Below, in pieces: positions 10,531 through 52,241 of a stretch of DNA of 64,000 nt; the stretch's first letter is position 1; the number at the start of each line of letters is the position of its first letter. The translations under genes and the position numbers were made by a program. The DNA lies in NCBI GenBank assembly GCA_021734045.1, contig JAIPJR010000001.1, forward strand, positions 5,901-69,900, given 5' to 3'. The notes beneath the pieces are model-generated. The model worked only from the letters and a program-made list of their open reading frames with translations. It ran no database searches and was not told the DNA's origin. This DNA is from Fidelibacterota bacterium. Lineage in GTDB: Bacteria > Fidelibacterota > UBA8477.

Positions 10531-10605
10531 GGGACCGTAGTTCAGCTTGGTTAGAACGCCAGCCTGTCACGTTGGAGGTCGCGGGTTCGAGCCCCGTCGG
10601 TCCCG
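10531..10605 (+). tRNA. tRNA-Asp (anticodon GUC)
   Basis: Folds by hand into a cloverleaf. The acceptor stem GGGACCG/CGGTCCC, D-arm GTTC…GAAC, anticodon stem CCAGC/GTTGG with loop CTGTCAC (anticodon GTC), and T-arm GCGGG-TTCGAGC-CCCGT all pair. CCA is not encoded. Confidence 0.85.
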
Positions 10606-27177: not shown

Positions 27178-27200
27178 CGGTACATATCCCCCGGCCACTC

Positions 27201-27469: not shown

Positions 27470-27946
27470 TCAGGGCACCTCAAATACCGTATCCAGCGCT
27501 TGCCGTGCAATTTCCAGCTGATCCTGCCGGACAACGGAACTAATCGAGCTGATTGAGGTGCTGATTCCTAAGATATTTACACCATTCAAACCCAATGCTC
27601 TGAAAGCCCGTGCCGCCAATCCACAGCGCTCCCTGAAATGCGGTCCGTACACGGTCAAAAGACTGACCGGGTAGGTCTTGGTTACCTTCAAATTCTGATG
27701 CAATTCCTGTACTGCCTGTACAGCCTGGTCCAGATTGTACTCATCATCCGGTTTTACGGTTACCGACATCATCGCCTGGCCTTCATCTCCGATGCTGCTG
27801 GTGGCTGAGATGAATCCGATACAAATATTCCGTGCGGCAAATTTACTCAAAACCGTACCCGCCCAGTCTGGAGAATCTATTCCGGATGAGAGATGAATGA
27901 ACATGAGATTGTTGTCCACCAGAATGCCGCCTACCCGCTCTTTCAT
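27470..27946 (-). CDS. Stand-alone tandem ACT-domain protein (aspartokinase regulatory-domain-like)
   Basis: 158 aa. Its C-terminal half resembles the regulatory ACT pair of aspartate kinases (…LLTVYGPHFRERCGLAARAFRALGLNGVNILGISTSISSISSVV…). The start ATG overlaps the histidine kinase stop (ATGA). Confidence 0.6.
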   Translation of the reverse strand: MKERVGGILVDNNLMFIHLSSGIDSPDWAGTVLSKFAARNICIGFISATSSIGDEGQAMMSVTVKPDDEYNLDQAVQAVQELHQNLKVTKTYPVSLLTVYGPHFRERCGLAARAFRALGLNGVNILGISTSISSISSVVRQDQLEIARQALDTVFEVP

Positions 27947-29286
27947 GGGACAATCTCCTTTGGAAAATGCACCTGAAAGGTGGAGCCCTGGTCCACTATG
28001 CTCTCCACCGTGACATAGCCACCGTGTTCATCTACCAGCCGCTCCACAATTGCTAATCCCAGCCCTGAGCCTGCTGAACTCACCGACTTTGCCTGAGGTG
28101 TACGATAAAATTCGTGAAAAATTTTCTTCAAATCCGAGGCTGCAATGCCAATACCGGTATCACGTACCTCCAGCAGGATTTCATCACTGGCGTCCATCAG
28201 GCGAATCAGGACGGAACCACTCTCCGGGGTATAGCGCACCCCGTTGGTTACCAGATTCCGCAGCACCTTCCGGATAGCATCCGGATCACAGACCAGTTTC
28301 ACCGGAGATTTCGGCATTTCCGCATCCAGCGTAATATGATGTGCGCTGGCGGTGATTTTTTCGTCCTGTAGAACTTCCTGCACCAACTCCCGCAGATCTG
28401 TTTCTACAAATTCCCCGGCACGCCGTAAATCACCGTAAGTGAGGTCCGAAAGGTCATTGAGCAATGCGATCATTTCTTCAGTTTTTTTCATGGATCGGGC
28501 TGCCATGTCCAGCACCCGGTCATCCACCTGATCGTGGAGAATGTCGTGAATGACTGCCAGGGTGGATTGGATGGTGCTGATGGGGGCTTTCAATTCGTGA
28601 CTGCTGACGCGAAGAAAGTTGGTTTTAGCCCGGTTCAATTCCTGGAGACGCCGGTTAGTGAATTCCAGACGTGTCCGCACCCGACGATACCGGTCGGTGA
28701 CATTTTTCGCCAGATAGGTGGAGAGGAAAATAGTCATGAGAAAAATGAGCCAGGTGAAAACCACAATTTCGGTGTACCGGGTGATATCTACACCTTCGTA
28801 AAAATTGAAATGGGGGAGAACACCAAGCCATTCGGTGCCCAGTAATGTGGTGTACAGAATTACTGCCAAGCCTGCAAATCCATAAGGCCGGGTCCCTGGA
28901 AAGATGACTGCGGCAGTAATAATGTGGAACAGATAGAAAAAGTAGAGCGGACTTTCGATTCCACCGGTAAAATGTATCAGAACGGTGAGGATGAGTAGGT
29001 CTCCCACCATCTGGATGACGATCAAATTTATCAGGTAGTCTTTGTGTTGACGAATAACATAATCGCGCAACAGAATGTAGATGGCATTGACAAGGACCAG
29101 GCCAATGAGAATCAGCACCAGGGCTTTGCATTGGACATGAATAGCCGGGAAATAGCATCCCAGCGCGATGCCAATGCCGAACACAACGATTGCCAGCCAG
29201 CGAATTCTGATTAGCCACGTGACCCGCCGCCGCAACGCAGCTGCAGTGAAAAAGGGTAGTGTGAATGGTGTCCGGCTCTGACTCAC
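27943..29286 (-). CDS. Sensor histidine kinase (membrane-embedded six-TM sensor, HisKA + HATPase_c)
   Basis: Six N-terminal TM helices without a sizeable periplasmic loop, then an H-box (RVSSHELKAPISTI) and N/G1/G2 boxes (…LVTNGVRYT…DTGIGI…GSGLGLAIV…). 447 aa. Confidence 0.85.
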   Translation of the reverse strand: MSQSRTPFTLPFFTAAALRRRVTWLIRIRWLAIVVFGIGIALGCYFPAIHVQCKALVLILIGLVLVNAIYILLRDYVIRQHKDYLINLIVIQMVGDLLILTVLIHFTGGIESPLYFFYLFHIITAAVIFPGTRPYGFAGLAVILYTTLLGTEWLGVLPHFNFYEGVDITRYTEIVVFTWLIFLMTIFLSTYLAKNVTDRYRRVRTRLEFTNRRLQELNRAKTNFLRVSSHELKAPISTIQSTLAVIHDILHDQVDDRVLDMAARSMKKTEEMIALLNDLSDLTYGDLRRAGEFVETDLRELVQEVLQDEKITASAHHITLDAEMPKSPVKLVCDPDAIRKVLRNLVTNGVRYTPESGSVLIRLMDASDEILLEVRDTGIGIAASDLKKIFHEFYRTPQAKSVSSAGSGLGLAIVERLVDEHGGYVTVESIVDQGSTFQVHFPKEIVP

Positions 29287-29307
29287 TGGGTTCCCACCTT
29301 CATGTAA

Positions 29308-29703
29308 TTATGCACGAACGTATTCACGTACTGTGTCAATCAAATCCCGGGGACTCACCGGTTTTTCCAGGAAAGCCTGGACCGGCAGGAAATCCTCATC
29401 TTTATGGGGATCGAATGTGAATCCGGTTTGATTGCCTACTGCCGTGAGAATCACCACCGGTGTATCTTTGATTGCCTCTTCGGACCGGATTTGGTAGGCA
29501 AGCTGGAAGCCCTCATCCAGATGTGCCATCATCACATCCAGCAGAACCAAATCGGGTTTTTCCTGACGCAATTTCTCCATTCCCCGGGTACCTTCCTGGG
29601 CGTCAATGACTATATATCCCACGGATTCCAGCGTTACCCGCATGGCTTCCACCAAATCAATATCGTCATCGATGATGAGAATTTTCTTTTTATTATCAGC
29701 CAT
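29308..29703 (-). CDS. Single-domain response regulator (CheY-like receiver only)
   Basis: Receiver motifs (KKKILIIDDD…, DLVLLDVMM, the conserved T, and K at …LEKP). No output domain. Start chosen as ATG 29703 (MADNKKKIL). It overlaps the upstream hydrogenase maturation protease gene by 8 nt. Confidence 0.8.
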   Translation of the reverse strand: MADNKKKILIIDDDIDLVEAMRVTLESVGYIVIDAQEGTRGMEKLRQEKPDLVLLDVMMAHLDEGFQLAYQIRSEEAIKDTPVVILTAVGNQTGFTFDPHKDEDFLPVQAFLEKPVSPRDLIDTVREYVRA

Positions 29704-30229
29704 GAACTCTGACCTCCTTTGAAAATCGTGGTGAAGGATGATTTCGTTTGATTGTGTTACCGGGAAGCGTTTTCCCGTGGTGATAAATATTCTCAATCAA
29801 TGTGATCACCTGAGGCAGGGCATTTCTGACAGCAGGGGATAGCCGGTGACTCACTGCTACAATTCCCGGCTGAACACCGATGACCCACATTCGCTCCGGC
29901 AGCATGTCCAGCTTTGTCGCCAGATGATACGCTTCGGCCAGTCCCATGCCGTGCAGGGACAGATGGTCCCAGTGCAGGACCAAATCTGCTTCCGAGGGAT
30001 CAAAACAACGCACTGCCCCCGGTTCTGCTCCCATTCGGGCGGCATCCACAATCACCAGATGCTTCCGGTTGGGAAAATATTCCAACAAGCCCAAAGTATC
30101 AGTACCGCCATCTATAAGTTCAATATCCCATTCTGCCTGCGTCTTGCGCAATGCCTGAATAACTGCAATTCCCACACCATCGTCTCCGAATTGGGGATTG
30201 CCTACGCCGATGACGGTTAACCGGGACAT
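29696..30229 (-). CDS. Hydrogenase maturation endopeptidase (HycI/HoxW/HybD family)
   Basis: MSRLTVIGVGNPQFGDDGVGIAV… matches the GxGNxxxxDDGxG signature. It sits directly 3' of the [NiFe] large subunit gene. Confidence 0.8.
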   Translation of the reverse strand: MSRLTVIGVGNPQFGDDGVGIAVIQALRKTQAEWDIELIDGGTDTLGLLEYFPNRKHLVIVDAARMGAEPGAVRCFDPSEADLVLHWDHLSLHGMGLAEAYHLATKLDMLPERMWVIGVQPGIVAVSHRLSPAVRNALPQVITLIENIYHHGKTLPGNTIKRNHPSPRFSKEVRVHG

Positions 30230-30232
30230 GTT

Positions 30233-31540
30233 TCACGCATCCTTAAAATCCACATCCAGAATATGCACGCTGCAGGAGATACAAGGATCGTACGCCCGCA
30301 CCAGCATTTCCAAATGTTGGGTGATTTCCGGCTTGGTTTTGTCCACGATTTCAGGCACCAACTTTTGCATGTCTGCATCCACATTGGCCAGGTTTTGACC
30401 CGTGGGAATCACGCAGTTTGCCGCCACGATGCGCCCGTGATTGTCGTAAGTATAATCGTGAAACAGAATACCCCGAGGCACCTCCGTGGAGCCGATCCCA
30501 CGACCGTAACGGGTAGGTGTCTGGTTGGGTTTTTCTGCTTTCAGACCGCACCCCAAAAGCTCATCAATAATGCGCACACTATCTTCCATGCAGTGCACCA
30601 CTTCCACCACCTGCGCCACGGTATTCATGTACGGGTTGTAGCATTTGGGTTTTAAGCCCAACGTCTCAGCACCTGCCAGCGCGGATTCATTCAGGTGCTT
30701 GTAGTTATTATTCCACCGCGCCAGAGCACCCACCATATAAGCTTCCCGTTTGTGCCGGGCGTGTTTGGATGTGCTGTGTGCCACCACGAATTCATTGGTG
30801 ACACTGAGATAATCCTCCACCGGAAAAGTCCCACCATCGGAGGAGCATGCCGCCCCTCCATACAGCGCATATTCTTCAGGGTGAGTGAGTGAAATATACT
30901 CGGTTTCTCGCTCGAACTGAGGAATAGCACCGGCCAATGCTTTCATCGTCTCAACAGTAGCCGCGCAATCCGGTAGCCCTTCGTTGAGTAATTTATCCTT
31001 TAAGAGCAGCAGCTCGTCCCGGGTAGGAATGCGTGTAAAACCACCAGGTACCGGTGTAATGGGATGTACTGCCCGTCCGGAAACAATATCACCAATATCA
31101 TTTGCCAGACGCTTCATGCGTAATGCCCGCAGAACGACATCCTTGTGGGTGGCAATGAGGGGGAAAACGCTGGGGGCATCCAAAAAATCGGGAACTGCCA
31201 GAAAATAGGCATGGAGAATATTGGATTGTATGGTAGCGCCGTTCACCAGCAATTTGCGCAACAGAACGGTCTGTTCCGAAACCTCTAAACCAAGTGCTGC
31301 TTCAGTGGTTTTCAGCGAGGTGATTTGATGACCAAGGCTACAAATTCCACAAATCCGGCTGGTGATGATGGCTGCTTCGGTAAAACTGCGTCCCTTCAGC
31401 ATGGCTTCGAAGAATCGCGGTGGTTCAACAATATTCAGATGAGCTTTTTCCAGGACACCATCCCGCATATTCACGACAATGTTTCCATGCCCCTCCACCC
31501 GGGTGATGTGATGAACATTGATATCCAAATTCTTCTTCAT
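30233..31540 (-). CDS. [NiFe] hydrogenase large (alpha) subunit, group 3b-like
   Basis: N-terminal L1 motif RICGICSLGH (RxCGxC) and C-terminal L2 motif DPCISCSVH (DPCxxCxxH). 435 aa, short like the group 3 enzymes. Confidence 0.9.
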   Translation of the reverse strand: MKKNLDINVHHITRVEGHGNIVVNMRDGVLEKAHLNIVEPPRFFEAMLKGRSFTEAAIITSRICGICSLGHQITSLKTTEAALGLEVSEQTVLLRKLLVNGATIQSNILHAYFLAVPDFLDAPSVFPLIATHKDVVLRALRMKRLANDIGDIVSGRAVHPITPVPGGFTRIPTRDELLLLKDKLLNEGLPDCAATVETMKALAGAIPQFERETEYISLTHPEEYALYGGAACSSDGGTFPVEDYLSVTNEFVVAHSTSKHARHKREAYMVGALARWNNNYKHLNESALAGAETLGLKPKCYNPYMNTVAQVVEVVHCMEDSVRIIDELLGCGLKAEKPNQTPTRYGRGIGSTEVPRGILFHDYTYDNHGRIVAANCVIPTGQNLANVDADMQKLVPEIVDKTKPEITQHLEMLVRAYDPCISCSVHILDVDFKDA

Positions 31541-32271
31541 ACGGCCACCTCATAAGCATTGAACAACTGTAATCGTTTCACCGCTTCATCCACTGACAGA
31601 CCTTTTTCCGTCAAAATTTCCACCATCGCTTCCCGATTCATCCCTTCCACAAACCCCCGGCAGCCGATACACGCCTGACCAACACCAGGGCAAATCGCCT
31701 GGCAGCCCGCCCGTGTTACAGGTCCCAGGCATATCTGTCCTTTGGTAAGGAGACATTCATTCTCTTCCAATTTGCATTCCACACAGACTGCATAGTTGTA
31801 TGTGGGCGGTGTTTTGCCCATGACCAGTGCTTTGAATAGTTGGAGAAAATCAGGCTGACTCATGGGACAGCCCCGCACCTCGTAATCCACAGCCACAATA
31901 GCTGAAATCGGCATAGCCGGGAGGGTGGCAAACCGGTATTTGTCTTGACCGTAAACCGTCTCCCTCACTTGTTCAATAGGCTGAATATTCTTCATGGCAT
32001 TAATGCCACCGTTCACCGCGCACGCGCCAAGTGCTACCAATATTTTGCTCCGGCGACGAATATCATGGATGCGCTCAACACATGAAGGAGAGGAAATGGA
32101 GCCTTCAACGAAAGTAATGTCATACTCATCACTGGTTTCATCCATGGCTTCCCGGAATTCCACCAAATCAACATGGGCCAGCAAATCCAGCAGTTCATTC
32201 TCAAAATTGAGTTTATTCAACTGACAACCTTCACAACCGGTAAAATCAAAAAAAGCAACTTTAGGTTTCAT
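31537..32271 (-). CDS. [NiFe] hydrogenase small (delta) subunit
   Basis: 244 aa with the proximal-cluster Cys pattern (…DFTGCEGCQ…, GACAVNGG, …CPGVGQACIGCRG…). Overlaps the alpha subunit gene. Confidence 0.85.
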   Translation of the reverse strand: MKPKVAFFDFTGCEGCQLNKLNFENELLDLLAHVDLVEFREAMDETSDEYDITFVEGSISSPSCVERIHDIRRRSKILVALGACAVNGGINAMKNIQPIEQVRETVYGQDKYRFATLPAMPISAIVAVDYEVRGCPMSQPDFLQLFKALVMGKTPPTYNYAVCVECKLEENECLLTKGQICLGPVTRAGCQAICPGVGQACIGCRGFVEGMNREAMVEILTEKGLSVDEAVKRLQLFNAYEVAV

Positions 32272-33123
32272 CTACAGCGCCTCCTCCAGCGGTTTGATAT
32301 CCGTGTACCGGAAGACCGGGCCATCCTGGCAGCAGTATTTCCCATTGATCTGACAATGTCCGCACTTACCCACACCACATTTCATCCTGCGTTCCAGCGA
32401 TACGAAAACCTGCTCATCAGGCAGGCGTTTTGACTTTAACGCCATGAGGACGAATTTGTACATCACCGGTGGACCTGTGACAGCTGCGATAGTATTTGGC
32501 AGATCCAATTGCAGTGCCGGAATCAGGGTTGTAATCACACCCACATTTCCAGTCCAGTCCGCGTTACCATGATCCACAGTCACATGAAATTCCACATCAT
32601 CACGCGCCGTCCATTCTGCCAGTTCTTCCCGGTAGAGCAATTCAGCTGGCGATTTTGTCCCATAGAGTATAATGAGCCGCCCAAATTCGGCTCTCCGGTC
32701 CAGGATGTAATGAATAAGCGATCGTAACGGGACGATACCAATACCACCACCGACTATCAGCACATCCTTCCCTCTGAACTCATTCACATTAAAACCATGA
32801 CCGAAGGGGCCCCGAATACCAATCGTGTCACCGGTATCCAGTGTTCGCAAGACCGATGTCAGCATACCCACTTTGCGGATACACAACTCAAAGCTGCCTT
32901 GCCTGGTGGGTGATGATGAGACGGAAATGGGCGCTTCACCAACCCCCAGAACGGATACCTCTACAAATTGTCCCGGTGTATGTCCCAGATCCTGACCACC
33001 GGGCAGCTCCACACGATACCATTTTTCCAGTTTCGTCAGTTCTTTTGCTTCCACGATTTTACACATGGTAGGCAGGTAGAGGCCCCGCTCTGCCGGGAGC
33101 GTTATATCATGCAAATGTTTCAT
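32272..33123 (-). CDS. Hydrogenase gamma subunit (FAD/NAD(P)-binding, [2Fe-2S]; sulfhydrogenase HydG / anaerobic sulfite reductase AsrB-like)
   Basis: Ferredoxin-NADP reductase-like fold with GGGIGIVP nucleotide-binding motif and C-terminal CGVGKCGHCQ cluster motif. 283 aa. Confidence 0.8.
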   Translation of the reverse strand: MKHLHDITLPAERGLYLPTMCKIVEAKELTKLEKWYRVELPGGQDLGHTPGQFVEVSVLGVGEAPISVSSSPTRQGSFELCIRKVGMLTSVLRTLDTGDTIGIRGPFGHGFNVNEFRGKDVLIVGGGIGIVPLRSLIHYILDRRAEFGRLIILYGTKSPAELLYREELAEWTARDDVEFHVTVDHGNADWTGNVGVITTLIPALQLDLPNTIAAVTGPPVMYKFVLMALKSKRLPDEQVFVSLERRMKCGVGKCGHCQINGKYCCQDGPVFRYTDIKPLEEAL

Positions 33124-34160
33124 GCCACCACCCCCGTTTTCGCATATTGTTGGTTTTCATAATCCTGGATCAAATTATTCACAATATCCGTGAGTGAGAT
33201 GCCCGCGGGGCAGAAGGCCGTACAGCGTCCACACCCCACACACCAGGGAACGCCCTCTTGGTCAGTGATATACTTGAACTTGCGGTAAACGCGGTGACGG
33301 GTTCGCTGCTCGTATTTGTCACGAAAATTTTCACCACCCGCCACCTCCGCGAAGGGCGTGAGCATGCAGCCGTCCCATTGGCGCCGCCGCTCGCCGGACT
33401 TCACATCCAGCGCCACATCATCCATCACATCGAAACAGTAACACGTGGGGCACATGAGATTACAGGTTCCGCAACCCACACAGCGCTCGGCAACCTTTTG
33501 CCAGACTTCCGAGTGGTACACGTGCTGGAATACTTCCGGAATACGGTTGTAATGGTATTTCAGCTTGTTTTTGAAATTCCGCTCAAAACGGACAATATCT
33601 TTCACAGCCTTGAGTTTCTGAAACCCCTTCAGCAAATCAGAACCCTCTTTATTCAGGATGAACAGGTAGTAATTGGTATCTACTTTATTCAGGAAAAGAT
33701 CGAATCCTTCCATCTCTTCCACCCGGATTCCAACACTGCGGGAGAAGTGATAGTCGTCGGGCTCAAAAGAAATTCCGATGAAAATGGCGTCCTGCCGGCG
33801 CAGGATATAATTAGGCTCGGGATGCCCCTCAATCATATTGTGATCCAGGCGCAGAACCGCCTGCATGTCGTAACTGTGGACCCCGAAAAATATCCGCTTT
33901 TCCGGCTTAATCTCTTCCTCCACAACATTTTGTTTCTGAATCGAGTACTGCAGGAGCCGTTCAGTTGGCGGCAGGAAAAATTTCTTAAGGGACAACATTG
34001 TCCGGTTGTAATCAAGGACCACTTCAGATGCATGCGTTACCCGTTCAAAGCTGTACGACTTTTCACCCTTCTGGTGTGGTGCGTACACCGGGGCGATTTT
34101 TTTTAAATGCTCAAGCAGGTCAGGTACTGCTTTTTGAGCCAGATGATAGCACTCCATCAA
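33120..34160 (-). CDS. Hydrogenase beta subunit (4Fe-4S; HydB/AsrA-like)
   Basis: Two ferredoxin-type motifs, CVGCGTCNLMCPTCYC and CVGCGRCTAFCP. 346 aa. First gene of the beta-gamma-delta-alpha operon, an order typical of group 3b bidirectional hydrogenases. Confidence 0.8.
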   Translation of the reverse strand: MMECYHLAQKAVPDLLEHLKKIAPVYAPHQKGEKSYSFERVTHASEVVLDYNRTMLSLKKFFLPPTERLLQYSIQKQNVVEEEIKPEKRIFFGVHSYDMQAVLRLDHNMIEGHPEPNYILRRQDAIFIGISFEPDDYHFSRSVGIRVEEMEGFDLFLNKVDTNYYLFILNKEGSDLLKGFQKLKAVKDIVRFERNFKNKLKYHYNRIPEVFQHVYHSEVWQKVAERCVGCGTCNLMCPTCYCFDVMDDVALDVKSGERRRQWDGCMLTPFAEVAGGENFRDKYEQRTRHRVYRKFKYITDQEGVPWCVGCGRCTAFCPAGISLTDIVNNLIQDYENQQYAKTGVVA

Positions 34161-34385
34161 TTTGCCTCTTTATCAATAGATGTTAAAAAAAATGCGTGTA
34201 TGTGCGGCATTTTGCCTCCCTTGAGCAAGGGAAGTTGCAAAGCAAGTGCCACATATGTTCTTGTTTTTACTGTTATTAATTGCGCATGTGAACTAACTGG
34301 ATGCCCGTGTTTCTTCTGCCAGACAGCACCAGTCAATAGCGCTAACTTCAGGGTATTTTAAGGGTTGGGAGGCGAGTAATTGTCC

Positions 34386-34422
34386 CAATCTTCCCGATGG
34401 TTTTGATTCACCGGGAAGATTG
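34386..34422. promoter_or_regulatory. Perfect 11-bp inverted repeat in the hydrogenase-operon upstream region
   Basis: caatcttcccg-(14 nt)-cgggaagattg. No flanking U-tract on either strand, so it may be a regulatory dyad rather than an intrinsic terminator. Confidence 0.3.
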
Positions 34423-34453
34423 GAATTTAGGAAGTGAAATTTATCGTACTGAT

Positions 34454-35805: not shown

Positions 35806-38007
35806 TCAGATTGAGGCTGAGAGTGAAAAACTCACCTGGCGTCCCGGCAGGGGATATCGTTCCAGCACCTCATACTGCTGGTTGGTGAGATTGTGGATGG
35901 TCAGGTTCGTGGTGAGGGTGGTTGTGGCGAATGAAAATTTATTTCCCACGGCCATGGTCCAGTCGGAAAACGGTTCCAGCCATTTGGTATTAGCTTTACG
36001 GATATATGTGCGTCCCTGTGCATGCCAGGTGGTTTGCAAGAAATAGCTTCGCCATTGCCATTTTGTATTCACGGTTACCTGATGTAATGCCCGGTAGGGC
36101 AGGTATTTTTGATAAGAATTAGCTCCCGGTGTGAGATTAATTGGGCGTCTGGCATCATACATCACATCCATCATGAAATAATTTGCCCAAGGGGTCAGGC
36201 TGACCAGAACATTGTACCCGGTAATCTGTGCCGATTCCACATTTTCAGGTGCGAAACGGTTGGCGTAACCCCGCACCCAACTGATGAGGTCTGTATATTT
36301 CTGACGGTACACCGTTCCGGACAGGGTCACTTGCCAGGGTGAAAAATCCGTGAAACGCAATCCCCACTCCGCATCCCGACTGCGCTCAGGATTCAAATCC
36401 GGATTGCCTACAGCATAAGCGTCGGGCACCCAGAATAATTCCCAGAAGCTGGGCAGGCGGTATCCCGTACCCATTTTGATCCAGGTCGAGAAGCGCTCTG
36501 TGTGTAGCCGCCAATGGGTCTGCCAGGTAAATGACACCTCACTTCGGCCCGTCGTTTCGTAGCGGGTCATTAAGGTGGGCGAGAGGGTATAGTTGGAGAT
36601 AGGCAGATGATACTCTCCGGATGCCACAATCGCCCGGGTATCGCGTTCATGCTGACCCAGACTGTACTGGGGGCGCAACCGATCCTGAGCGTCAAGGGAC
36701 TCACCACGCCAGGTCATTTCCAGCCCCAGAGCCGTGGACTCGGATTGGTAGGTTCCCTTCAGACTTTGCTCCAGAAGTCCGTGTGCCGTTTGAAGATGAT
36801 ACCCACCAAATACCGATTCCTGAGCAGATTGATTCTGCTCTGTTCGGTCCCAGGTGGTAGCACTGGTGACAGACCAGGAATTTTTGTTGAAAATCACTTG
36901 GGTAGCCAGGTGCTGCTGCAGTGCGTCCCGGGTGGCGTCGGGTGTTAATTCATACAATGGCCCGGGTAATCCCTGTTGAGAATGGCTTACAAATCCCAGA
37001 CTTTCCCAATGCAGACCGGAGCGCGGTGAGTAGGTGGTGTTCAGCCACAGCGATTGTTGGGAATGGGCAGCATTCTGTCGTCGGAAAGATTCACCGTCCA
37101 CCGTGTACGGGTAATTATTTTGACCCGTTTCCCAATTTCCATGCGCGCTTACCGAGAATGTACGGCGGCGTACTTCGCCCCGTGCCCGCATGCGCTGCTG
37201 GCCCCAATTTCCGGTGGTAGCTGTTAAGCCATACTGCTCGTCCTGGGGAGCTGGTGCCAGGATAATATTCACCACCCCGCCCATAGCCTGGCTACCGTAC
37301 CGGGAAGACTGATTGCCGGGTGCGATTTGGATTTCACCGATGGATTGGGGCGCAATCTGATTCACATCAAAACCACCGCTACTACCGGTCTGTACCGGCT
37401 GGCCGTTCACCAGAATCAAGACCTGATTGGCTTGGCTGCCCCGAAGGGTAATTTTTGGCGTTTGGCCTGGTCCCCTTGACTGGCGTTCAATTTCAGGGAT
37501 ACGCACGAGCAAATCGGATACATCCCGGGCAACCAGGATATCTTCCTCTGAGGGCCGAAAGCGGTGAAATGTACCGGCTGGTAGCGATAGGTTTCGTGGT
37601 GACGCGGTGGCTTCCACCTGTACCGCAGGGAGATCAATCTGTCGCGGTGTGAGCGTCACGGAGAGATTCGCACTGCCCCGGGGATTCAGGTCAATGGCCA
37701 GTTCTTCCGGTTCGTATCCGATATGCGTAAAGCGGAGTTTCACACTACCCGCCCGAGGTGCCTGTATTTGGAAGCGTCCGGACTGATTGGTGACGGTGCC
37801 CGTGCTGGCATTCATCAGGATGACCTGGGTTTCTGCCAGCCCTTTTCCCGTAATCGCATCCCGGACAATGCCGGAAACGGTGAAATCCCGGCCAAAGTTC
37901 CAGGACGGGCAAATGAGTAACACCACCAGGAAGGTTCTGAGTAATGGAAACAGTTTTACCGGAACTGGTAGTCGCGGTTTTGGGGGAAGTGAGTATGAGA
38001 AATACAT
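35806..38007 (-). CDS. TonB-dependent outer-membrane receptor (BtuB-like; N-terminal carboxypeptidase-regulatory-like domain)
   Basis: Plug domain and 22-strand barrel signatures (…TLRGSQANQVLILVNGQPVQ…, TonB-box-like segment). Preceded by a cobalamin riboswitch. ATG 38007 (MYFSYSL…) has an RBS GAGG. The ORF-track start at 38013 is a TTG. Confidence 0.85.
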   Translation of the reverse strand: MYFSYSLPPKPRLPVPVKLFPLLRTFLVVLLICPSWNFGRDFTVSGIVRDAITGKGLAETQVILMNASTGTVTNQSGRFQIQAPRAGSVKLRFTHIGYEPEELAIDLNPRGSANLSVTLTPRQIDLPAVQVEATASPRNLSLPAGTFHRFRPSEEDILVARDVSDLLVRIPEIERQSRGPGQTPKITLRGSQANQVLILVNGQPVQTGSSGGFDVNQIAPQSIGEIQIAPGNQSSRYGSQAMGGVVNIILAPAPQDEQYGLTATTGNWGQQRMRARGEVRRRTFSVSAHGNWETGQNNYPYTVDGESFRRQNAAHSQQSLWLNTTYSPRSGLHWESLGFVSHSQQGLPGPLYELTPDATRDALQQHLATQVIFNKNSWSVTSATTWDRTEQNQSAQESVFGGYHLQTAHGLLEQSLKGTYQSESTALGLEMTWRGESLDAQDRLRPQYSLGQHERDTRAIVASGEYHLPISNYTLSPTLMTRYETTGRSEVSFTWQTHWRLHTERFSTWIKMGTGYRLPSFWELFWVPDAYAVGNPDLNPERSRDAEWGLRFTDFSPWQVTLSGTVYRQKYTDLISWVRGYANRFAPENVESAQITGYNVLVSLTPWANYFMMDVMYDARRPINLTPGANSYQKYLPYRALHQVTVNTKWQWRSYFLQTTWHAQGRTYIRKANTKWLEPFSDWTMAVGNKFSFATTTLTTNLTIHNLTNQQYEVLERYPLPGRQVSFSLSASI

Positions 38008-38029
38008 CTGCAAACCTCATTCGCGAAGG

Positions 38030-38200
38030 CTATAGCGTGAATGACGTGTCGTGCAGGTGTCCTGACTCCCGGATCATTCTCCTCCAGCGCCTTCCCAGCT
38101 AGGTAAAAAGCCAGTGGCGGATTGCCAGATTCGTTCCCGGTTACAGTAGCGCGTCTGTGCCCGATTCTCACGGGCTTCCCGTACGCGACACATCTCAAAA
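38030..38200 (-). promoter_or_regulatory. Cobalamin (B12) riboswitch in the 5' leader of the TonB-dependent receptor
   Basis: The minus-strand transcript reads …GGGAAGCCCGTGAGAATCGGGCACAGACGCGCTACTGTAACCGGGAACGAATCTGGCAATCCGCCACTGGC…GCTGGGAAGGCGCTGG…. This contains the conserved core elements GGGAA…GTGAGAATC…CGC-ACTGTAA…the B12 box GCCACTG…GGGAAGG. The sequence ends about 20 nt before the RBS of the receptor gene. Confidence 0.8.
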
Positions 38201-38429
38201 TTTGAAAAATCGCTCATTAAGCTAAATGGCTCCTGGTTGATTACAATAAATTTCTTACACGATGATGCATTTCTTTGTTCGGTGGATAGTAAGCAACAAT
38301 AAATACAGTTAGATACGCGATAAATCACCCGGAGCATACCTGGGGATGATACGGTCTTGCAGGCGGGATATCCGCCGTTGGAGTCTAATCCGTCAGCGGT
38401 TAAATTGGCCACGCCTTGAAGGAGGGATT

Positions 38430-39227
38430 GTGTCAGAAAAATCGATGACAAATATTGGTGTGGCCAATATTTATGAAGAGCCGGCATTCCGCTCACAGGT
38501 GGTTTCCCAATCCTATTTAGGGGAGTCGCTGCATGTATTGTCCATCGAAAAAGACTGGTTCCGGGTTCGCCAGGAAGATGGCTATGAAGGCTGGATCAAT
38601 GCGGGGCAAGCGGTGGAGAAACCCGCCGATTGGGATGATGTGGTGAAATTTACCACTGATGATCTGGTAACCACGATATACGACCAGCCGGATATGTATG
38701 CCGCGCCGCTGCGTGACATGATTTTGGGAACACAATTACCATTGCGCAGCCGTCGTGATGGGTGGGTGGAGATTTCACTGCCCGATGGGATTACCGGTTG
38801 GGTGGTGGATCATCCTTACCATTACCCATCAGAGCCAACAGTGGAACAACTCCTCTCCACTGCCATGCGGTTTCAAGGCATTCCCTATTTCTGGGGAGGT
38901 AAGACTCCCAAAGGTTTTGACTGTTCCGGATTTGTTCAGACCGTTTTTCGTCTCAATGGACAAGCTCTCCCCCGGGATGCATGGCAGCAGGCTGAGGTGG
39001 GCGAAACATTGCCGGCGAATTGGGAAACATGGCAGGCCGGCGACCTGATTTTTTTTAGCGAAAATGGTCAGCGCATCACCCATGTGGCGTTGAGTTTAGG
39101 GGCCGGTGATTATATCCATGCTTCCGGATATGTGAAGCTCAATTCCTTTAACTCAAATCATGGCGAGCTTTATCATCAGCCGTTGGTGGATAACTATGTG
39201 AAAACACAGCGGGTGATTGCAGTGTAG
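38430..39227 (+). CDS. NlpC/P60-family cell-wall peptidase with N-terminal SH3b-like domains
   Basis: C-terminal catalytic region (…GIPYFWGGKTPKGFDCSGFVQTVF…H…) with the Cys-His papain-like motif. GTG at 38430 has a strong RBS (AGGAGGG 4 nt upstream). An ATG at 38445 is also possible. Confidence 0.8.
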   Translation: MSEKSMTNIGVANIYEEPAFRSQVVSQSYLGESLHVLSIEKDWFRVRQEDGYEGWINAGQAVEKPADWDDVVKFTTDDLVTTIYDQPDMYAAPLRDMILGTQLPLRSRRDGWVEISLPDGITGWVVDHPYHYPSEPTVEQLLSTAMRFQGIPYFWGGKTPKGFDCSGFVQTVFRLNGQALPRDAWQQAEVGETLPANWETWQAGDLIFFSENGQRITHVALSLGAGDYIHASGYVKLNSFNSNHGELYHQPLVDNYVKTQRVIAV

Positions 39228-44603: not shown

Positions 44604-44740
44604 TAAATCCTGCATGCCCCGGCTTCAGAATATTGCTTTCGAAAAAGTTGGATTCACACAGACCGGCGACTATATTTGGCCGCTTTTATGAGAGCAGTTA
44701 GAGAATATAAGCGCAATAGAATTAATGGTTTTTTGAAAGC

Positions 44741-47700
44741 ATGATTATCGCCATTGATGGTCCGGCGGCATCCGGAAAATCCAGTACTGCAGCGCGTGTT
44801 GCGGCGAAATTGGGGTTCCGGCATATTGATACCGGTGCCATGTACCGGGCTGTGACCTTGTACATGTTGGATCATGGTGTAGATATTTCGGACACAGAAT
44901 CCGTTCTGAACGTACTGCCGGATGTGGATGTGTCGCTTGAATTTAAAGGTGATAATCAACATGTGATTCTAGCGGGTGTGGATGTGAGTGATCGCATCCG
45001 AACGCCGGCTGTGAATGAGCATGTGAGCCAGGTTAGCGCAATACCGGCCGTACGCCAGCGTCTCGTAGAACTCCAGCGCCAAGCTGCCAATGACTACGAT
45101 GTGGTATTGGAAGGACGCGACATCGGAACAGTCGTATTTCCCAATGCCGAATTGAAAATTTTTATGATTGCCGATGTCCATGTCCGGGCACAACGGCGCC
45201 AGCAGGAGTTGGCGAGCCTGGGCATTCAGCAAGACCTGGCTGAATTGGAAAAAGATCTGATAGCGCGTGACAAAATCGATTCATCGCGAGAATTGTCACC
45301 ATTGAAACCCGCTACTGATGCAGTCGAGCTGGATACATCCAAGCTTACCATCGACCAGCAGGTAGCATTCATCGTTAACCAAGCCAAGCAACTGATTGCA
45401 GAGGAGGAAAGACCCTTCATGGCAGAAGAAGAAAAAAAGGATGCACCGCAGACTGAAGACCAGTCCCAGGAGACATCCGAAACCACCTCAGACGCCGTCG
45501 AGATGACGCCCGCCGAGGAAACCCAGGACAAAAAAGAAGAGACCATCGCGTCTGAACCTGAACCCGAAACCAAAACCGAGACCGAAGCTGAATCCAAAAC
45601 TGAAGCCGAAGCCGAAGCCGAAGCCGAAGCCGAAGCCGCAGAAACTGACGCTAACACCGCATCTGCTAAAGATGAGGGTGACGAAGTCAGTTCTGAGGTA
45701 GCACAAAAAACTGATGCTGAAATGACGCCTGAACAAGCCCCGGATACAGAAGCACCGGTCGAGGAAAGTGCGGAATCATCTGACAAAGATGAACCGGCCA
45801 AAAGCACTCGGAAAACCGTCAAGGTGAAAGCCAAAACTTCTGGTGAGCCACCGGTTCAACCGGTTGTTGATGCGGAAGAAGCTGAAAAAGCTTCGAAAAA
45901 GATTGCCGGACTGGATAAACGGTCCGCCATGAATGACATCTTCAACCAGATCAAGACAGTGAAGCCGGATCAGCTTGCTGAAACCATTGCTGAAGAATCC
46001 GAGGAAGTGAAAGACCTTTCCTTCCTGCTGGATCGTACTATCGCAGACATTACGCCGCGTACCCTGGTGGAAGGGCGTGTCATTTCTGTGGGCGATCGTG
46101 AAGTACTGGTGGACATCGGTTTCAAATCCGAAGGGCTGGTTTCCCGGGATGAATTCAAGGATGACGAATTGCCCAAGGTGGGTGATAAAATCGAATTATT
46201 CCTGGATACACTGGAAGATGATCAGGGTCAGACAATTCTGTCCAAACGCAAAGCAGATTTCATGCGTGTCTGGACCGCGATAAAAGATGTTTCCGACAAT
46301 GACGACCTCATCAATGGCACCATTACTCGCCGGATTAAAGGTGGTATGGTGGTGAATGTGATGGGTATTGATGCCTTCCTGCCCGGATCGCAACTGGATG
46401 TGCGCCCCATCCATGATTTTGACGCATATATCGGAAAGTCCTACGACTTCAAGATCGTCAAACTCAATGAAACCCGGAAGAATATCGTACTCTCACGGAA
46501 AGACCTGCTGGAGGAAAAACTCCAGAAACAGCGGGCTGAACTGTTGAAGAATATCGAGATTGGCCAGGTACTGGAAGGCCGGGTAAAAAATATCACCGAT
46601 TTTGGCGTATTCGTCGACTTGGGTGGTGTTGATGGTCTGTTGCATATCACCGATTTGTCCTGGGGACGGGTTAACCATCCCTCTGAAGTTGTGGATATGG
46701 ACGATGAAATTACCGTAAAGGTGATTGATTACGATGAAGAAAAACAGCGTGTCTCGCTGGGATTCAAACAGTTACAGCCACACCCGTGGGAACATGTGGA
46801 ACAGAAATATCCTGTGGGTTCTGCTGTTAAAGGCAAAGTGGTCAGCATCACCAATTACGGTATTTTTGTGGAATTGGAAGAGGGTGTTGAAGGTCTGGTA
46901 CATATCTCAGAAATTTCCTGGACCCAACACATCAAGCATCCATCGGAAATTTATTCGGTTGGTGACGAAATTGAGACCGTCGTGCTTTCAATCGCACCGG
47001 ATGATCGTAAAATCAGCCTGGGCGTGAAGCAACTGAAACCGGATCCCTGGACCCTGATTGAGGATACCTACATCGTGGGTACACTCCACACAGGTACGGT
47101 TAAGAACCTGACCCAGTTCGGCGCATTTGTTGAATTGGAAGAGGGTATCGAAGGCCTGATCCACATCTCAGATCTCTCATGGACGCGCAAAGTCCGTCAT
47201 CCGAAAGAGGTACTGAAACGCGGAGACGAAGTGGAAGTCCGCATTCTCGACATTGCTCAGGACCAGCGGAAAATCTCGCTTGGGCTCAAGCAGGCCGAGG
47301 AGGATCCATGGCCGCAGATTGAACAGGAATTTGCCGTGAACAGCACCCGTAAGGGTAAAGTCATCAAATTGCTGGACAAAGGCATCATCCTGGAGCTGGA
47401 AGGGACCGATGTTGAAGGTCTGATTCCCCTGGCTGCGTTCAACAAGAAAGACCGGAAGACGATTCTGGATAAGTTCGAGGTAGATCAGGAAGTAGAAGTC
47501 AAGGTGATCGAGATTGATCCCAATGACAAGAAAATCCTGGTCAGCCATGAAGCCGCCATCAAAGATAAAGAACGGGCGGTTGTGGACGAATATCTGCGCG
47601 GTCAGAAGCAGGACGGCAATAAGCTTGACATTCCCGATGAAATCGTGGCCAAAATCAAGGAAGCTGCCGAGGAAGAAACCGAGAAAAAGGTTGCTGCTGC

Positions 47701-48055
47701 TGCCAAGCGGAAAGCCGCTAAAGCAAAAGAAGAAGAAAAAGCACAGAAAAAAGCGGATGCGGAAGATGCTGCGGAATCAGAAGCTGAAGAGAAGCCTGCA
47801 TCCAAAACCAAAACCAAATCCAAATCCAAATCGAAATCGAAAGCAAAATCCGAAGATACGGAAGATGCTGCCGATGCCGATGCCGATGCCGATGAGGATG
47901 CTATTGAAACGGAAGCCACTGGAGAGAAAGAGCAATCTGACTCTGATGTGGAAAACGATGAAAAACCAGCGGACGAATCCGAATCTCCTGATGACGATTC
48001 AACAAAACCCGCTGATGATGCGAACGATGAGGAAGAATCCAAAGACGATAAGTAA
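44741..48055 (+). CDS. Cytidylate kinase - 30S ribosomal protein S1 fusion (Cmk-RpsA), with long low-complexity acidic linker and K/A/E/D-rich C-terminal tail
   Basis: N-terminus MIIAIDGPAASGKSSTAARVA…RDIGTVVFP is Cmk. About 180 aa of E/T/A/S/D-rich linker follow, including an (EA)n run. Then come six S1 repeats (…GRVISVGDREVLVDIGFKSEGLV…, …GQVLEGRVKNITDFGVFVDLGG…, …GSAVKGKVVSITNYGIFVELEEG…, …GTLHTGTVKNLTQFGAFVELEEG…, …RKGKVIKLLDKGIILELEG…). The sequence ends in KTKTKSKSKSKSKAKS and DADADADE runs. Confidence 0.85.
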   Translation: MIIAIDGPAASGKSSTAARVAAKLGFRHIDTGAMYRAVTLYMLDHGVDISDTESVLNVLPDVDVSLEFKGDNQHVILAGVDVSDRIRTPAVNEHVSQVSAIPAVRQRLVELQRQAANDYDVVLEGRDIGTVVFPNAELKIFMIADVHVRAQRRQQELASLGIQQDLAELEKDLIARDKIDSSRELSPLKPATDAVELDTSKLTIDQQVAFIVNQAKQLIAEEERPFMAEEEKKDAPQTEDQSQETSETTSDAVEMTPAEETQDKKEETIASEPEPETKTETEAESKTEAEAEAEAEAEAAETDANTASAKDEGDEVSSEVAQKTDAEMTPEQAPDTEAPVEESAESSDKDEPAKSTRKTVKVKAKTSGEPPVQPVVDAEEAEKASKKIAGLDKRSAMNDIFNQIKTVKPDQLAETIAEESEEVKDLSFLLDRTIADITPRTLVEGRVISVGDREVLVDIGFKSEGLVSRDEFKDDELPKVGDKIELFLDTLEDDQGQTILSKRKADFMRVWTAIKDVSDNDDLINGTITRRIKGGMVVNVMGIDAFLPGSQLDVRPIHDFDAYIGKSYDFKIVKLNETRKNIVLSRKDLLEEKLQKQRAELLKNIEIGQVLEGRVKNITDFGVFVDLGGVDGLLHITDLSWGRVNHPSEVVDMDDEITVKVIDYDEEKQRVSLGFKQLQPHPWEHVEQKYPVGSAVKGKVVSITNYGIFVELEEGVEGLVHISEISWTQHIKHPSEIYSVGDEIETVVLSIAPDDRKISLGVKQLKPDPWTLIEDTYIVGTLHTGTVKNLTQFGAFVELEEGIEGLIHISDLSWTRKVRHPKEVLKRGDEVEVRILDIAQDQRKISLGLKQAEEDPWPQIEQEFAVNSTRKGKVIKLLDKGIILELEGTDVEGLIPLAAFNKKDRKTILDKFEVDQEVEVKVIEIDPNDKKILVSHEAAIKDKERAVVDEYLRGQKQDGNKLDIPDEIVAKIKEAAEEETEKKVAAAAKRKAAKAKEEEKAQKKADAEDAAESEAEEKPASKTKTKSKSKSKSKAKSEDTEDAADADADADEDAIETEATGEKEQSDSDVENDEKPADESESPDDDSTKPADDANDEEESKDDK
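45602..45637 (+). repeat. (GAAGCC)5 hexanucleotide microsatellite inside cmk-rpsA (encodes EAEAEAEAEA)
   Basis: Five perfect tandem GAAGCC units, flanked by degenerate copies (gaagct, gaatcc, aaaact). Confidence 0.8.
47804..47902 (+). repeat. Tandem hexanucleotide repeats (AAAWCS)8 and (GATGCC)3-5 near the 3' end of cmk-rpsA
   Basis: aaaacc aaaacc aaatcc aaatcc aaatcg aaatcg aaagca aaatcc (47804-47851) encodes KTKTKSKSKSKSKAKS. gatgcc x3 with flanking gatgct and gatgag (47864-47902) encodes DADADADEDA. Confidence 0.8.
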
Positions 48056-50141: not shown

Positions 50142-52241
50142 GTGCTGGTTTTCGCCGAAATAAACACCCATTTTGATTTTCACGGCAACCTGGGGTGGTT
50201 GCTGCTGGCGCTTGTCCTTTTCACGGCGTGGATTTGGTACACCCATCGCCAGGCAAAACAAGCGCCGACAACCCTGCAAGGGCTGGAATGGTTATGGATT
50301 TTGCGTGGCATTTCTGTTGTTTTGTTACTGCTACTATTTTTCGCGCCCGAGATGCGGTTCGCATACTCGGAGTCCAAGGAAAAAGAAGTACTCGTACTGG
50401 TTGATAACTCTGCCAGTATGCCATTAGCATGGGATGAAGACTGGGATGCTGTCAGAGAAGAAACAGCGCAATTTTTTAATAATTTGAGTAAAAGCCATTC
50501 GGTCAGGACAGCGGCAATGTCAAATCAAGGTGACGCAGCCAGCGCAGATTTTTCACAAATAATATTCGATGGCGAATCCAGCATTTTTCCCTCCAAATTT
50601 CCATTTAACGACATGGATCGGTTCTCAGCAGTGATTGCTTTTACTGATGGGCAGTTCAATGTGGGACCTTCTCCGCTGGATGTGGAATGGCTGAAAGCGT
50701 TGCCGATTTACCCGGTTTTACCAGCTGAGCCCAAATCACCGGAGGGGCTTAAAATTGTTGAGTTGATTGCGCCGGATGGGATTGCCGTATCGGACTCACT
50801 CCCGTTTCAATTGACCTGGCGACGCATGGGGAATCTTCCTGCTGAGTTGGAAATTTCTGTACAGAATGAAACAACCCAGCAGATGCTCCTGAGTCACTCA
50901 CTGACACAGACGCGGGAATTGAAAACATTTGTTTCCAAATTACGATTCCGGCAACCTGGACTGCAGCGCTTGAATTTTCAATTAGCCACCACCGATGGTC
51001 AATTTACCACCAATATTTCGAAAACGATCAGAGTGAGGAAATCCCGGCGTCACGTTTTACTTATCTCCGATGTTCTCACACCCCTGGTGACCGTGCTTCA
51101 GCGAAGTTTACCAGACTCGCTCTTTTCAGTGGAATCGTTGATAAAGTCTAAACAAGGTGGCTTTGTCTCGGGAAAAGACCCCCGGATCGTCAATACACCA
51201 GACCTGATTCTGCTGGTTGATCACGGGGATTTAGTCCTAAATGATGATACAAGGGAATTAGTCAGCCGGGTGTATGCCGATTCCATCCCAACCGTCATTT
51301 TTAATTTGAATAACAGTCAGTTATCAACTGCCATTCCGGGACTCCAGATGCGTGGTAATCTTGAGGAGAATGAATTCACACCATTTTTGGCCCAGGAGGG
51401 CAAGCGCCATCCTCTCGGAATACTGGCAACCGCCATAACATCCACCGGTCGGGGTGAGTCAGATTTTTGGACCTCATTGCCGCCCCTGCAGTCGGGCAAT
51501 CAGATACTCTGGGTTGACGGTGTACGGGTCTTCGAAAAAATCGTCTCACCTGAACCAGTCCCCGTGATTACCCTGGACGAAAAACGACCGCTACTGGTGC
51601 TCAACGGGACCGGATATTGGCGCTGGTTTTTCCGACCACCGGGGATGATGCAATTCAATCAGTACTGGGAGCAAGTGGTTACCTACCTGTTGAATCGAAA
51701 ATACCTGAAGTTGGTATCCCTCAATCTACAGAATGAGGCGATTCATGTGGGGGAGCAAGTGCCGGTCCATCTCCAGGTGCGTGATGTCCAGGGGGCACCG
51801 CTGGATCAAGGCAGTGTATCATTGTATCAGGTTGAACAGTCCAACGGCACATCCCAATCGTTAGCCGTGTGGCGTGTTGCCCCCGGCTTATACCGTTCGG
51901 CATTAAAGACTAGTGAAAAAGGGCGATACACGCTGATTGGCCGGGCTGAACGAGGCGGGAATGTCTGGGGGCAGGATAGTCTGGAGGTACAGGTTGCTGC
52001 ATACTCGGCGGAAACGCAGGTTACGGGAGTGAATCAACCTTTATTGCAGCGACTGGCGGCAAATTCCGGTGGTCATGTGCTGGGACCGGATGACTTGAAT
52101 GATATCCGACTTCCTGCTGGTGAATACACCACTTGGCATGAATTTATATGGCCGGGATTGAACCGTGTCTGGGTCATGTTTTTATTAATTCTGGCGTTTG
52201 GCATGGAATGGATTTTCCGGCGCCGTATGGGGTTAATGTAG
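50142..52241 (+). CDS. Membrane-anchored vWA-domain protein with N-terminal double-TM segment (BatA-like architecture)
   Basis: Two N-terminal TM helices, then the MIDAS-like motif LVLVDNSASM (DxSxS), then a long extracytoplasmic C-terminal region and a final TM/hydrophobic segment (…VWVMFLLILAFGMEWIF). 699 aa. GTG start. Confidence 0.55.
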   Translation: MLVFAEINTHFDFHGNLGWLLLALVLFTAWIWYTHRQAKQAPTTLQGLEWLWILRGISVVLLLLLFFAPEMRFAYSESKEKEVLVLVDNSASMPLAWDEDWDAVREETAQFFNNLSKSHSVRTAAMSNQGDAASADFSQIIFDGESSIFPSKFPFNDMDRFSAVIAFTDGQFNVGPSPLDVEWLKALPIYPVLPAEPKSPEGLKIVELIAPDGIAVSDSLPFQLTWRRMGNLPAELEISVQNETTQQMLLSHSLTQTRELKTFVSKLRFRQPGLQRLNFQLATTDGQFTTNISKTIRVRKSRRHVLLISDVLTPLVTVLQRSLPDSLFSVESLIKSKQGGFVSGKDPRIVNTPDLILLVDHGDLVLNDDTRELVSRVYADSIPTVIFNLNNSQLSTAIPGLQMRGNLEENEFTPFLAQEGKRHPLGILATAITSTGRGESDFWTSLPPLQSGNQILWVDGVRVFEKIVSPEPVPVITLDEKRPLLVLNGTGYWRWFFRPPGMMQFNQYWEQVVTYLLNRKYLKLVSLNLQNEAIHVGEQVPVHLQVRDVQGAPLDQGSVSLYQVEQSNGTSQSLAVWRVAPGLYRSALKTSEKGRYTLIGRAERGGNVWGQDSLEVQVAAYSAETQVTGVNQPLLQRLAANSGGHVLGPDDLNDIRLPAGEYTTWHEFIWPGLNRVWVMFLLILAFGMEWIFRRRMGLM

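Follow-up and report, generated by a model that had tools for sequence, protein, structure and literature searches.

Cobalamin riboswitches of the Cbl-I class, which are adenosylcobalamin-selective, are defined by a P2 stem module and a large P6 extension (PMC7367189). The element described here was found in a 64-kb stretch of DNA, the whole of which was analysed and is called the window. It resembles Cbl-I riboswitches such as those of E. coli btuB and Thermoanaerobacter tengcongensis (PDB 4GMA) in its P1-P2 module and P3-P6 junction, in the T-loop-type sequence of L4, in the long P6 extension and the B12 box, in the complementarity of L5 to the loop of a hairpin further downstream, and in its place before a btuB-type receptor gene. 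It differs from them in that L5 is the 5-nt ACGCG instead of the C-rich consensus CCCCCG, and in that the optional P2-P3 hairpin is absent (1 nt instead of 23). Polaski et al. have reported that the kissing loops of the AdoCbl family always contain at least one unpaired nucleotide, whereas the predicted kissing loop of the window is a contiguous palindromic CGCG/CGCG pair with no internal bulge.

Reports also exist of platforms in which an RBS-bearing stem-loop, SL13, forms a ligand-dependent kissing loop with L5 (PMC5028336, PMC9600662, PMC7367189). In the env8 hydroxocobalamin riboswitch (Cbl-IIa, PDB 4FRN), a short single-stranded J1/13 leads into a small SL13, whose docking on L5 conceals the RBS. 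The window has the same order of parts and the same predicted regulatory logic, in which a terminator or an alternative long helix is unnecessary (PMC5028336). The two differ in that env8 lacks the P6 extension and carries J1/3 in place of P2, whereas the window has both the P6 extension and P2. In addition, the RBS of env8 lies inside L13, whereas the Shine-Dalgarno sequence of the window forms the 3' arm of P13, beside L13. The J1/13 linker is 7 nt long in env8 and 10 nt in the window. Linkers of 5–25 nt support regulation in env8 (PMC5028336), and those of the window (10 nt) and of two related loci, L004 (11 nt) and L006 (16 nt), all fall inside this range.

The riboswitch-btuB-btuG loci of Bacteroides (Wexler 2018, Abellon-Ruiz 2023) are a third point of comparison. 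Like the window, they combine a B12 riboswitch with a TonB-dependent receptor (BtuB; BtuB-like in the window) and a neighbouring seven-bladed propeller of the BtuG fold. Wexler et al. searched 313 human gut genomes with BlastP and have reported no BtuG homologues outside the Bacteroidetes (PMC6143338). The window differs from the Bacteroides loci in that its host lies outside the Bacteroidota and its receptor-propeller operon contains neither btuFCD nor btuH. Its propeller shares only 14–17% identity with BtuG, lacks the lipoprotein cysteine and carries a T9SS sorting domain at its C-terminus.

Aptamer and promoter region

A first-pass annotation had picked out by eye, on the minus strand at 38030–38200, a cobalamin riboswitch core with its conserved blocks in canonical order, and had proposed the RF00174 covariance model as a check. 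The model agrees with this reading. A cmscan of the window with Rfam 15 gave one RF00174 (Cobalamin) match, at 38203..38035 (-), with 96.1 bits and E=1.1e-22. The score is about three-fold over the gathering score of 31.5 bits, and the match lies within 5 nt of the proposed interval at each end. Model positions 1–189 of 189 are aligned, and the match is not truncated. Across the window, two Rfam 15 matches stood above the gathering score, the cobalamin riboswitch and a tRNA; the tRNA gene is at 10531–10605 (+) (RF00005, 65.1 bits).

The B12 box and helices P3, P4, P5 and P6 align to the model in the canonical order. The P2–P6 pairings form as in the RF00174 alignment, with seven negative-scoring non-canonical pairs flagged by Infernal, and 33 of the 44 pairs are standard when the Rfam consensus structure is taken literally. 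P2 is bordered by single unpaired bases, and P1, which the first-pass annotation could not delimit, has now been placed (Table 1). Judged from the sequence, the P2 module and the long P6 extension give the aptamer a Cbl-I (adenosylcobalamin-type) layout, and every testable sequence-level feature that defines RF00174 and Cbl-I appears to be present. The identity of the ligand would follow that of the riboswitch family. The minimum free energy (MFE) fold of the whole leader misses the Rfam fold and is about as stable as the folds of shuffled sequences (z=-0.66), a measure that is uninformative for an RNA with tertiary structure. The riboswitch is genuine but ordinary, and how cobalamin riboswitches work is left unchanged by the present case. 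Three open reading frames that overlap it (38074–38496 (-), 37956–38198 (-) and 37787–38035 (+)) were treated as spurious.

Table 1. Positions in the window of the promoter, riboswitch, expression platform and operon features, in the order of transcription.
Feature	Position	Strand	Remarks
Putative -35 hexamer TTGTAA	38241..38246	-	Candidate; TTGkAw conserved in the window, L004, L006 and L136
Putative -10 hexamer TAGCTT	38219..38224	-	Candidate; inside block CATTTAGCTTAA
Cobalamin riboswitch aptamer, Cbl-I architecture	38035..38203	-	RF00174 full-length match
P1	AGAU 38195-38192 with GUCA 38045-38042	-	Three standard pairs and A.A
P2 (8 bp)	UGUCGCGU 38190-38183 with GCACGACA 38054-38047	-	Seven standard pairs and C.A
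P3	38181-38179 with 38057-38055	-	Rfam alignment mapped to coordinates
P4/L4 hairpin GCCCG-UGAGAAU-CGGGC	38175-38159	-	Rfam alignment
P5/L5 mini-hairpin AG-ACGCG-CU	38156-38148	-	Rfam alignment
L5 loop ACGCG, predicted kissing-loop partner	38150..38154	-	Closed by P5 pairs A-U and G-C
P6 and long extension (87 nt)	38147-38061	-	Contains the conserved GCCACUG and GGGAAGGC blocks
B12 box AGUCAGGACACCUGC	38053..38067	-	Invariant or nearly so in all relatives
J1/13 single-stranded linker UUCACGCUAU, 10 nt	38032..38041	-	Sequence and length vary in relatives
P13 hairpin AGCCUU[CGCGAAU]GAGGUU	38013..38031	-	3' arm carries the Shine-Dalgarno sequence
L13, 7-nt loop	38025-38019	-	Begins with CGCG
Shine-Dalgarno GAGG	38015..38018	-	7 nt upstream of AUG 38007
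BtuB-like TonB-dependent receptor, 733 aa	35806..38007	-	CarboxypepD_reg, Plug and barrel (Pfam)
BtuG-like seven-bladed beta-propeller, 436 aa	34454..35764	-	Sec signal, T9SS C-terminal sorting domain
17-bp hairpin, probable operon end	34383..34425	-	-27.2 kcal/mol, z=-5.4 against shuffles; about 30 nt past the propeller stop

The same riboswitch was found in the same place in six related loci with scores of 68.8–93.1 bits, and the element is therefore far beyond chance. Two of these loci, L004 and L006, are syntenic with the window; their riboswitches score 91.2 and 93.1 bits, and their receptors are 74% and 50% identical to that of the window. The other four, L136, L139, L142 and L144, were reached through homologues of the propeller gene and keep the order riboswitch, receptor, propeller, with scores of 68.8–89.5 bits. 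Three loci with more distant propeller homologues (L143, L145 and L146) had no riboswitch within the DNA fetched, and in these another gene precedes the receptor. A metagenome pattern search gave nine more loci, eight of them with readable platforms, in which L5 is CCCCG or CCCCCG and the platforms are different; six have a CUAAUC(C)...GGAUUAG hairpin with CGGG in the loop and AAGGA in the 3' arm. A contig scan with the B12-box pattern AGTCAGGACAYCTGC gave no new riboswitch among the sampled matches, nearly all of which lie inside coding sequence and mostly in one recurring conserved context. This context, where the translated motif reads SQDICF, is presumably mnmA, a gene for tRNA thiolation.

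Upstream of the riboswitch, a divergent NlpC/P60 gene starts at 38346 (+), and the transcription start site therefore lies between 38345 and 38203. In the window, L004, L006 and L136, the two candidate promoter hexamers of Table 1 stand a constant 16 nt apart, with a spacer whose sequence diverges; the block around the second is invariant among the first three of these loci and also occurs in L136. A start site near 38213 +/- 3 is predicted with low confidence. A sigma-70 consensus promoter scan around the riboswitch called nothing; the putative promoter was missed because its -10 hexamer agrees with TATAAT only at positions 1, 2 and 6, three out of six. The region 38204–38250 (-) was also compared in L004, L006, L136 and L139, and the conserved order there is TTGTAA, 16 nt, TAGCTT and then AATGAGCGATTTTTC. 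The sequence AGCGATTTTTC just downstream of the putative promoter is conserved as well, as is the AGCGAUUUUUC stretch past the two hexamers.

Expression platform and its conservation

Downstream of P1 the order of elements is UUCACGCUAU-AGCCUU-CGCGAAU-GAGGUU-UGCAG-AUG. The first-pass annotation had the core ending about 20 nt before the RBS, expected GAGG at about 38015 and proposed that an anti-RBS pairing be sought there. All three points have held. The covariance-model match ends 16 nt, and the 3' strand of P1 23 nt, before GAGG, which is located at 38018–38015, 7 nt upstream of the AUG at 38007. The CCUU at 38029–38026 pairs with this GAGG, and the pairing is conserved in relatives. The P13 hairpin as a whole joins AGCCUU (38031–38026) to GAGGUU (38018–38013) through the pairs A-U, G-U, C-G, C-G, U-A and U-G. 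Its free energy alone is -3.8 kcal/mol, and that of the CCUU/GAGG core alone is -1.8. The CGCG of L13 is the exact complement of the CGCG in L5, with an RNAduplex energy of -5.2 kcal/mol. The expression platform, earlier left unresolved between a terminator and an RBS-sequestering helix, is now read as an RBS-sequestering P13 hairpin, and the earlier interpretation has needed completion only and no correction. SD-like 4-mers stand before 32% of first ATGs in the window and at 7.6% of random positions, and sequestration of a Shine-Dalgarno sequence is therefore meaningful in this organism. A pairing of the B12-box CUGCA (38056–38052) with the UGCAG beside the AUG (38012–38008), seen in one MFE fold, was rejected because L006 has CUGCU and GGAAA at these places.

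A three-way alignment of the window, L004 and L006 showed that the 17-nt block CCTTCGCGAATGAGGTT, which spans P13, L13 and the Shine-Dalgarno sequence, is invariant together with the L5 hairpin. The linker and the coding region diverge among the same three loci, whose receptors are only 50–74% identical. P13 belongs to the MFE fold in L004 and L006. Over all seven loci, the CCUU...GAGG scaffold is present in every case, with AAGG instead of GAGG in L136. The P13 columns are 85.7% paired in the alignment, an underestimate because MAFFT partly misaligns columns where the loop is 8 nt long.

Complementarity between L5 and L13 was likewise found in all seven loci. The loop pairs of the more distant relatives are UCGCG with CGCGAAAA in L136, GCGCG with CGCGACUC in L139, CCCCG with CGAGGGC in L142 and UCCCG with CGAGGUCA in L144, and in each of these the L13 fits its own L5 better than the L5 of the other clade. 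An RNAduplex matrix of every L5 against every L13 is block-diagonal, and cognate pairs score above cross-clade pairs. The CGCG-type pairs gave -5.2 to -6.8 kcal/mol and the two CCCG-type self-pairs -4.8 (L142) and -1.8 (L144) kcal/mol, whereas the cross-clade pairs gave 0 to -2.9 kcal/mol. Counted over P4, P5, the kissing loop and the core of P13, 94% of pairs are standard in register, against 31–47% when the partners are slid by 1–3 columns. Two pairs of P4 show compensatory changes among the relatives. In the kissing loop no column-wise compensatory change was found at the aligned columns of the seven loci; of its four pairs, three are constant, and L142 and L144 have lost the fourth, their loops needing a register with a bulged A instead. 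The match of L5 to L13 at the level of clades amounts in effect to roughly one evolutionary event, and a 4-nt complement in a 35-nt leader is not rare by chance (own estimate about 0.2).

The start codons of the relatives bear on what P13 hides. In L006 an ACG aligns with the AUG of the window, and the gene caller starts instead at an AUG inside GAAUGAGG. When L006 4995–5010 is set against window 38020–38005, this AUG, within the conserved GAAUGAGG of L13/P13, is the only nearby in-frame AUG of L006. The window also has an AUG inside GAAUGAGG, at 38020, which is out of frame with the receptor. In L144 the AUG directly abuts GAGG. Because of these two start positions, in L006 and L144, GAGG cannot be the Shine-Dalgarno sequence in every relative. 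In both loci the start codon, and not the Shine-Dalgarno sequence, would be what P13 hides, and the conserved P13 block may hide the one in some lineages and the other in others.

The element, a Cbl-I riboswitch at the head of a BtuB-like/BtuG-like operon, probably acts as a translational OFF switch through an L5-L13 kissing loop. Corrinoid would bind in the four-way junction of P3–P6. In the bound state the ACGCG of L5 and the CGCG of L13 would form a kissing loop of four base pairs and so stabilise the otherwise marginal P13, in which the Shine-Dalgarno GAGG forms the 3' arm; with GAGG held in the stabilised hairpin, the 30S subunit could not load. Without ligand, P13 would breathe, and receptor and propeller would be made. 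The dependence of the kissing loop on ligand, and the direction and level of control, would be those expected by analogy with the riboswitch family.

The same aptamer could instead drive a helix swap from P1. In this scheme the P1 3' strand UCAUUC would pair, without ligand, with GAAUGA at the L13/SD junction, and closure of P1 on ligand would free the GAAUGA segment, so that P13 could form. The competing helix, UCAUUC.CG with CG.GAAUGA (-4.8 kcal/mol), is indeed the MFE fold of the window platform in place of P13. It overlaps the last bases of P1, and its core UCAUU/AAUGA can be written in the window, L004 and L006. However, the first two bases of the Shine-Dalgarno sequence lie within this helix, which so would be a poor anti-sequestor, and only 4–5 bp of it remain in L004 and L006. 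L136, L139, L142 and L144 have no counterpart helix while keeping P13 and an L5-matched loop. A swap also leaves the invariance of the L13 CGCG unexplained and is, on balance, unlikely. Slightly less probable again is control exerted mainly on transcription or on mRNA stability, with premature termination (for example Rho-dependent) or decay, for which inhibition of translation would act merely as the trigger; as a secondary effect it may occur. An intrinsic terminator can be excluded because the 27 nt between the covariance-model match and the AUG leave no room for one and because a terminator scan found no stem with a U-run in 37500–38700.

That the element is a decayed, non-regulatory relic or an activating (ON) corrinoid riboswitch is very improbable: an activating example has been described (PMC10327014), and the whole-leader fold is not unusually stable, but against this stand a full-length score at three times threshold with just seven negative-scoring non-canonical pairs, strong purifying selection on aptamer and platform across loci at 50% protein identity, a Shine-Dalgarno sequence in the P13 arm, by which docking would give repression, and the classical repression of uptake genes by B12 (PMC6143338).

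Receptor and propeller genes

The riboswitch ends 27 nt before the AUG of the gene that the first-pass annotation had taken for a receptor, and this arrangement is kept in L004, L006, L136, L139, L142 and L144. The product is a TonB-dependent receptor, and its best specific matches are to BtuB. Against NCBIfam the best matches were the BtuB equivalogs NF007926 and TIGR01779 (115 bits each, 3e-33), and against PDB sequences they were E. coli BtuB and Bacteroides BtuB1/2/3. The score of 115 bits is far below the equivalog cut-offs (836 for NF007926 and 600 for TIGR01779), and a CarboxypepD_reg domain is added at the N-terminus. Best match and context therefore make the protein BtuB-like, and not an equivalog.

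The gap between receptor and propeller is 41 nt. The 17-bp hairpin past the propeller stop was missed by the terminator scan because it has no U-tract; it may be a terminator that lacks this tract or a stabiliser of the 3' end. Between it and the [NiFe]-hydrogenase genes lie about 290 nt without coding sequence. The hairpin, this non-coding stretch and the separate hydrogenase cluster indicate that the regulated unit most likely consists of two genes.

The second gene adjoins the receptor in every relative examined. The N-terminus of its product, MTFKSISRIIILTLIQTHLLIAGSELY, contains no cysteine and reads as a Sec-type signal peptide without a lipobox, and its C-terminus is a Por_Secre_tail / T9SS type A sorting domain in Pfam and NCBIfam. 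An AlphaFold2 model built from 27 homologues has a mean pLDDT of 87.9. When this model was compared with the PDB by Foldseek, ranks 2–17 were all Bacteroides BtuG (BtuG1/2/3) or the homologue 3DSM. These matches had an rmsd of about 3.3 A, E values of 1e-12 to 1e-15 and target-normalised TM scores of 0.75–0.79, except for a TM score of 0.44 with the 626-residue BtuG1 chain 8blw_B. Rank 1 was an archaeal protein that combines a YVTN propeller with PKD and covers the C-terminal Ig-like domain as well. In a family profile search BtuG1 was matched at E=1e-21, and an archaeal S-layer YVTN propeller scored higher (1e-33).

Of the features expected of BtuG, the fold and the place beside a btuB-like gene in a riboswitch locus are thus found in the propeller, and the N-terminal lipoprotein cysteine is not. 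It is conceivable, at somewhat less than even chances, that the propeller is a surface corrinoid-capturing protein of the BtuG type, displayed through T9SS and not through a lipid anchor, in Marinimicrobia-/Zixibacteria-like lineages outside the Bacteroidota. Fold similarity and gene context are what would make it a T9SS-anchored BtuG-like protein. The replacement of the lipid anchor by a T9SS domain is the one feature that is mildly unusual, and the sole lead with some novelty.

A receptor protein identical to that of the window is found in the MAG GCA_021734565.1, which NCBI labels 'Lentisphaeria bacterium'. The taxonomic labels conflict, since for both operon proteins the nearest homologues come under the name Candidatus Marinimicrobia, and the genes carry hallmarks of the FCB group, namely a T9SS sorting domain and a TonB receptor of the CarboxypepD_reg type. 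A relative further away is labelled Zixibacteria, and propeller homologues paired with a TonB-dependent receptor occur in MAGs under both names, Marinimicrobia and Zixibacteria.

Genomic surroundings and meaning for the host

The region 27943–34160 (-) holds a four-subunit [NiFe]-hydrogenase cluster (a Fer4_22 protein, an FAD/NAD-binding protein, the small subunit and the large subunit), whose domain order we take to resemble that of group 3b hydrogenases. The same block also encodes a HycI protease, a response regulator and a histidine kinase. In L136 the btu module directly precedes a TetR-OEP-HlyD-AcrB cluster, which in the window lies at 27198–20827, and the hydrogenase block therefore looks like an insertion/deletion difference between lineages. 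On the other side of the riboswitch, a 1109-aa ORF at 44726–48055 (+) contains cytidylate kinase and S1 RNA-binding domains (five matched stretches) and appears to be a cmk-rpsA fusion. A 699-aa ORF at 50142–52241 (+) had no Pfam match at E<=1e-5.

The riboswitch is of value mainly for annotation: it marks the 733-aa receptor and the 436-aa 'T9SS sorting domain protein', both of them generically named, as a module for corrinoid uptake, and suggests that an uncultured Marinimicrobia-like organism scavenges B12. For the riboswitch family, the window would add one further natural case of a compact translational platform with a kissing loop, in which the palindromic CGCG/CGCG loop pair is unusual. 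If the T9SS-anchored, BtuG-like assignment of the propeller is true, the 'lid-on-barrel' B12 piracy of BtuBG would extend to FCB bacteria that live free in the environment and use another chemistry for anchoring, and linkage to the riboswitch gives a testable handle on such BtuG-like B12 capture outside the Bacteroidota.
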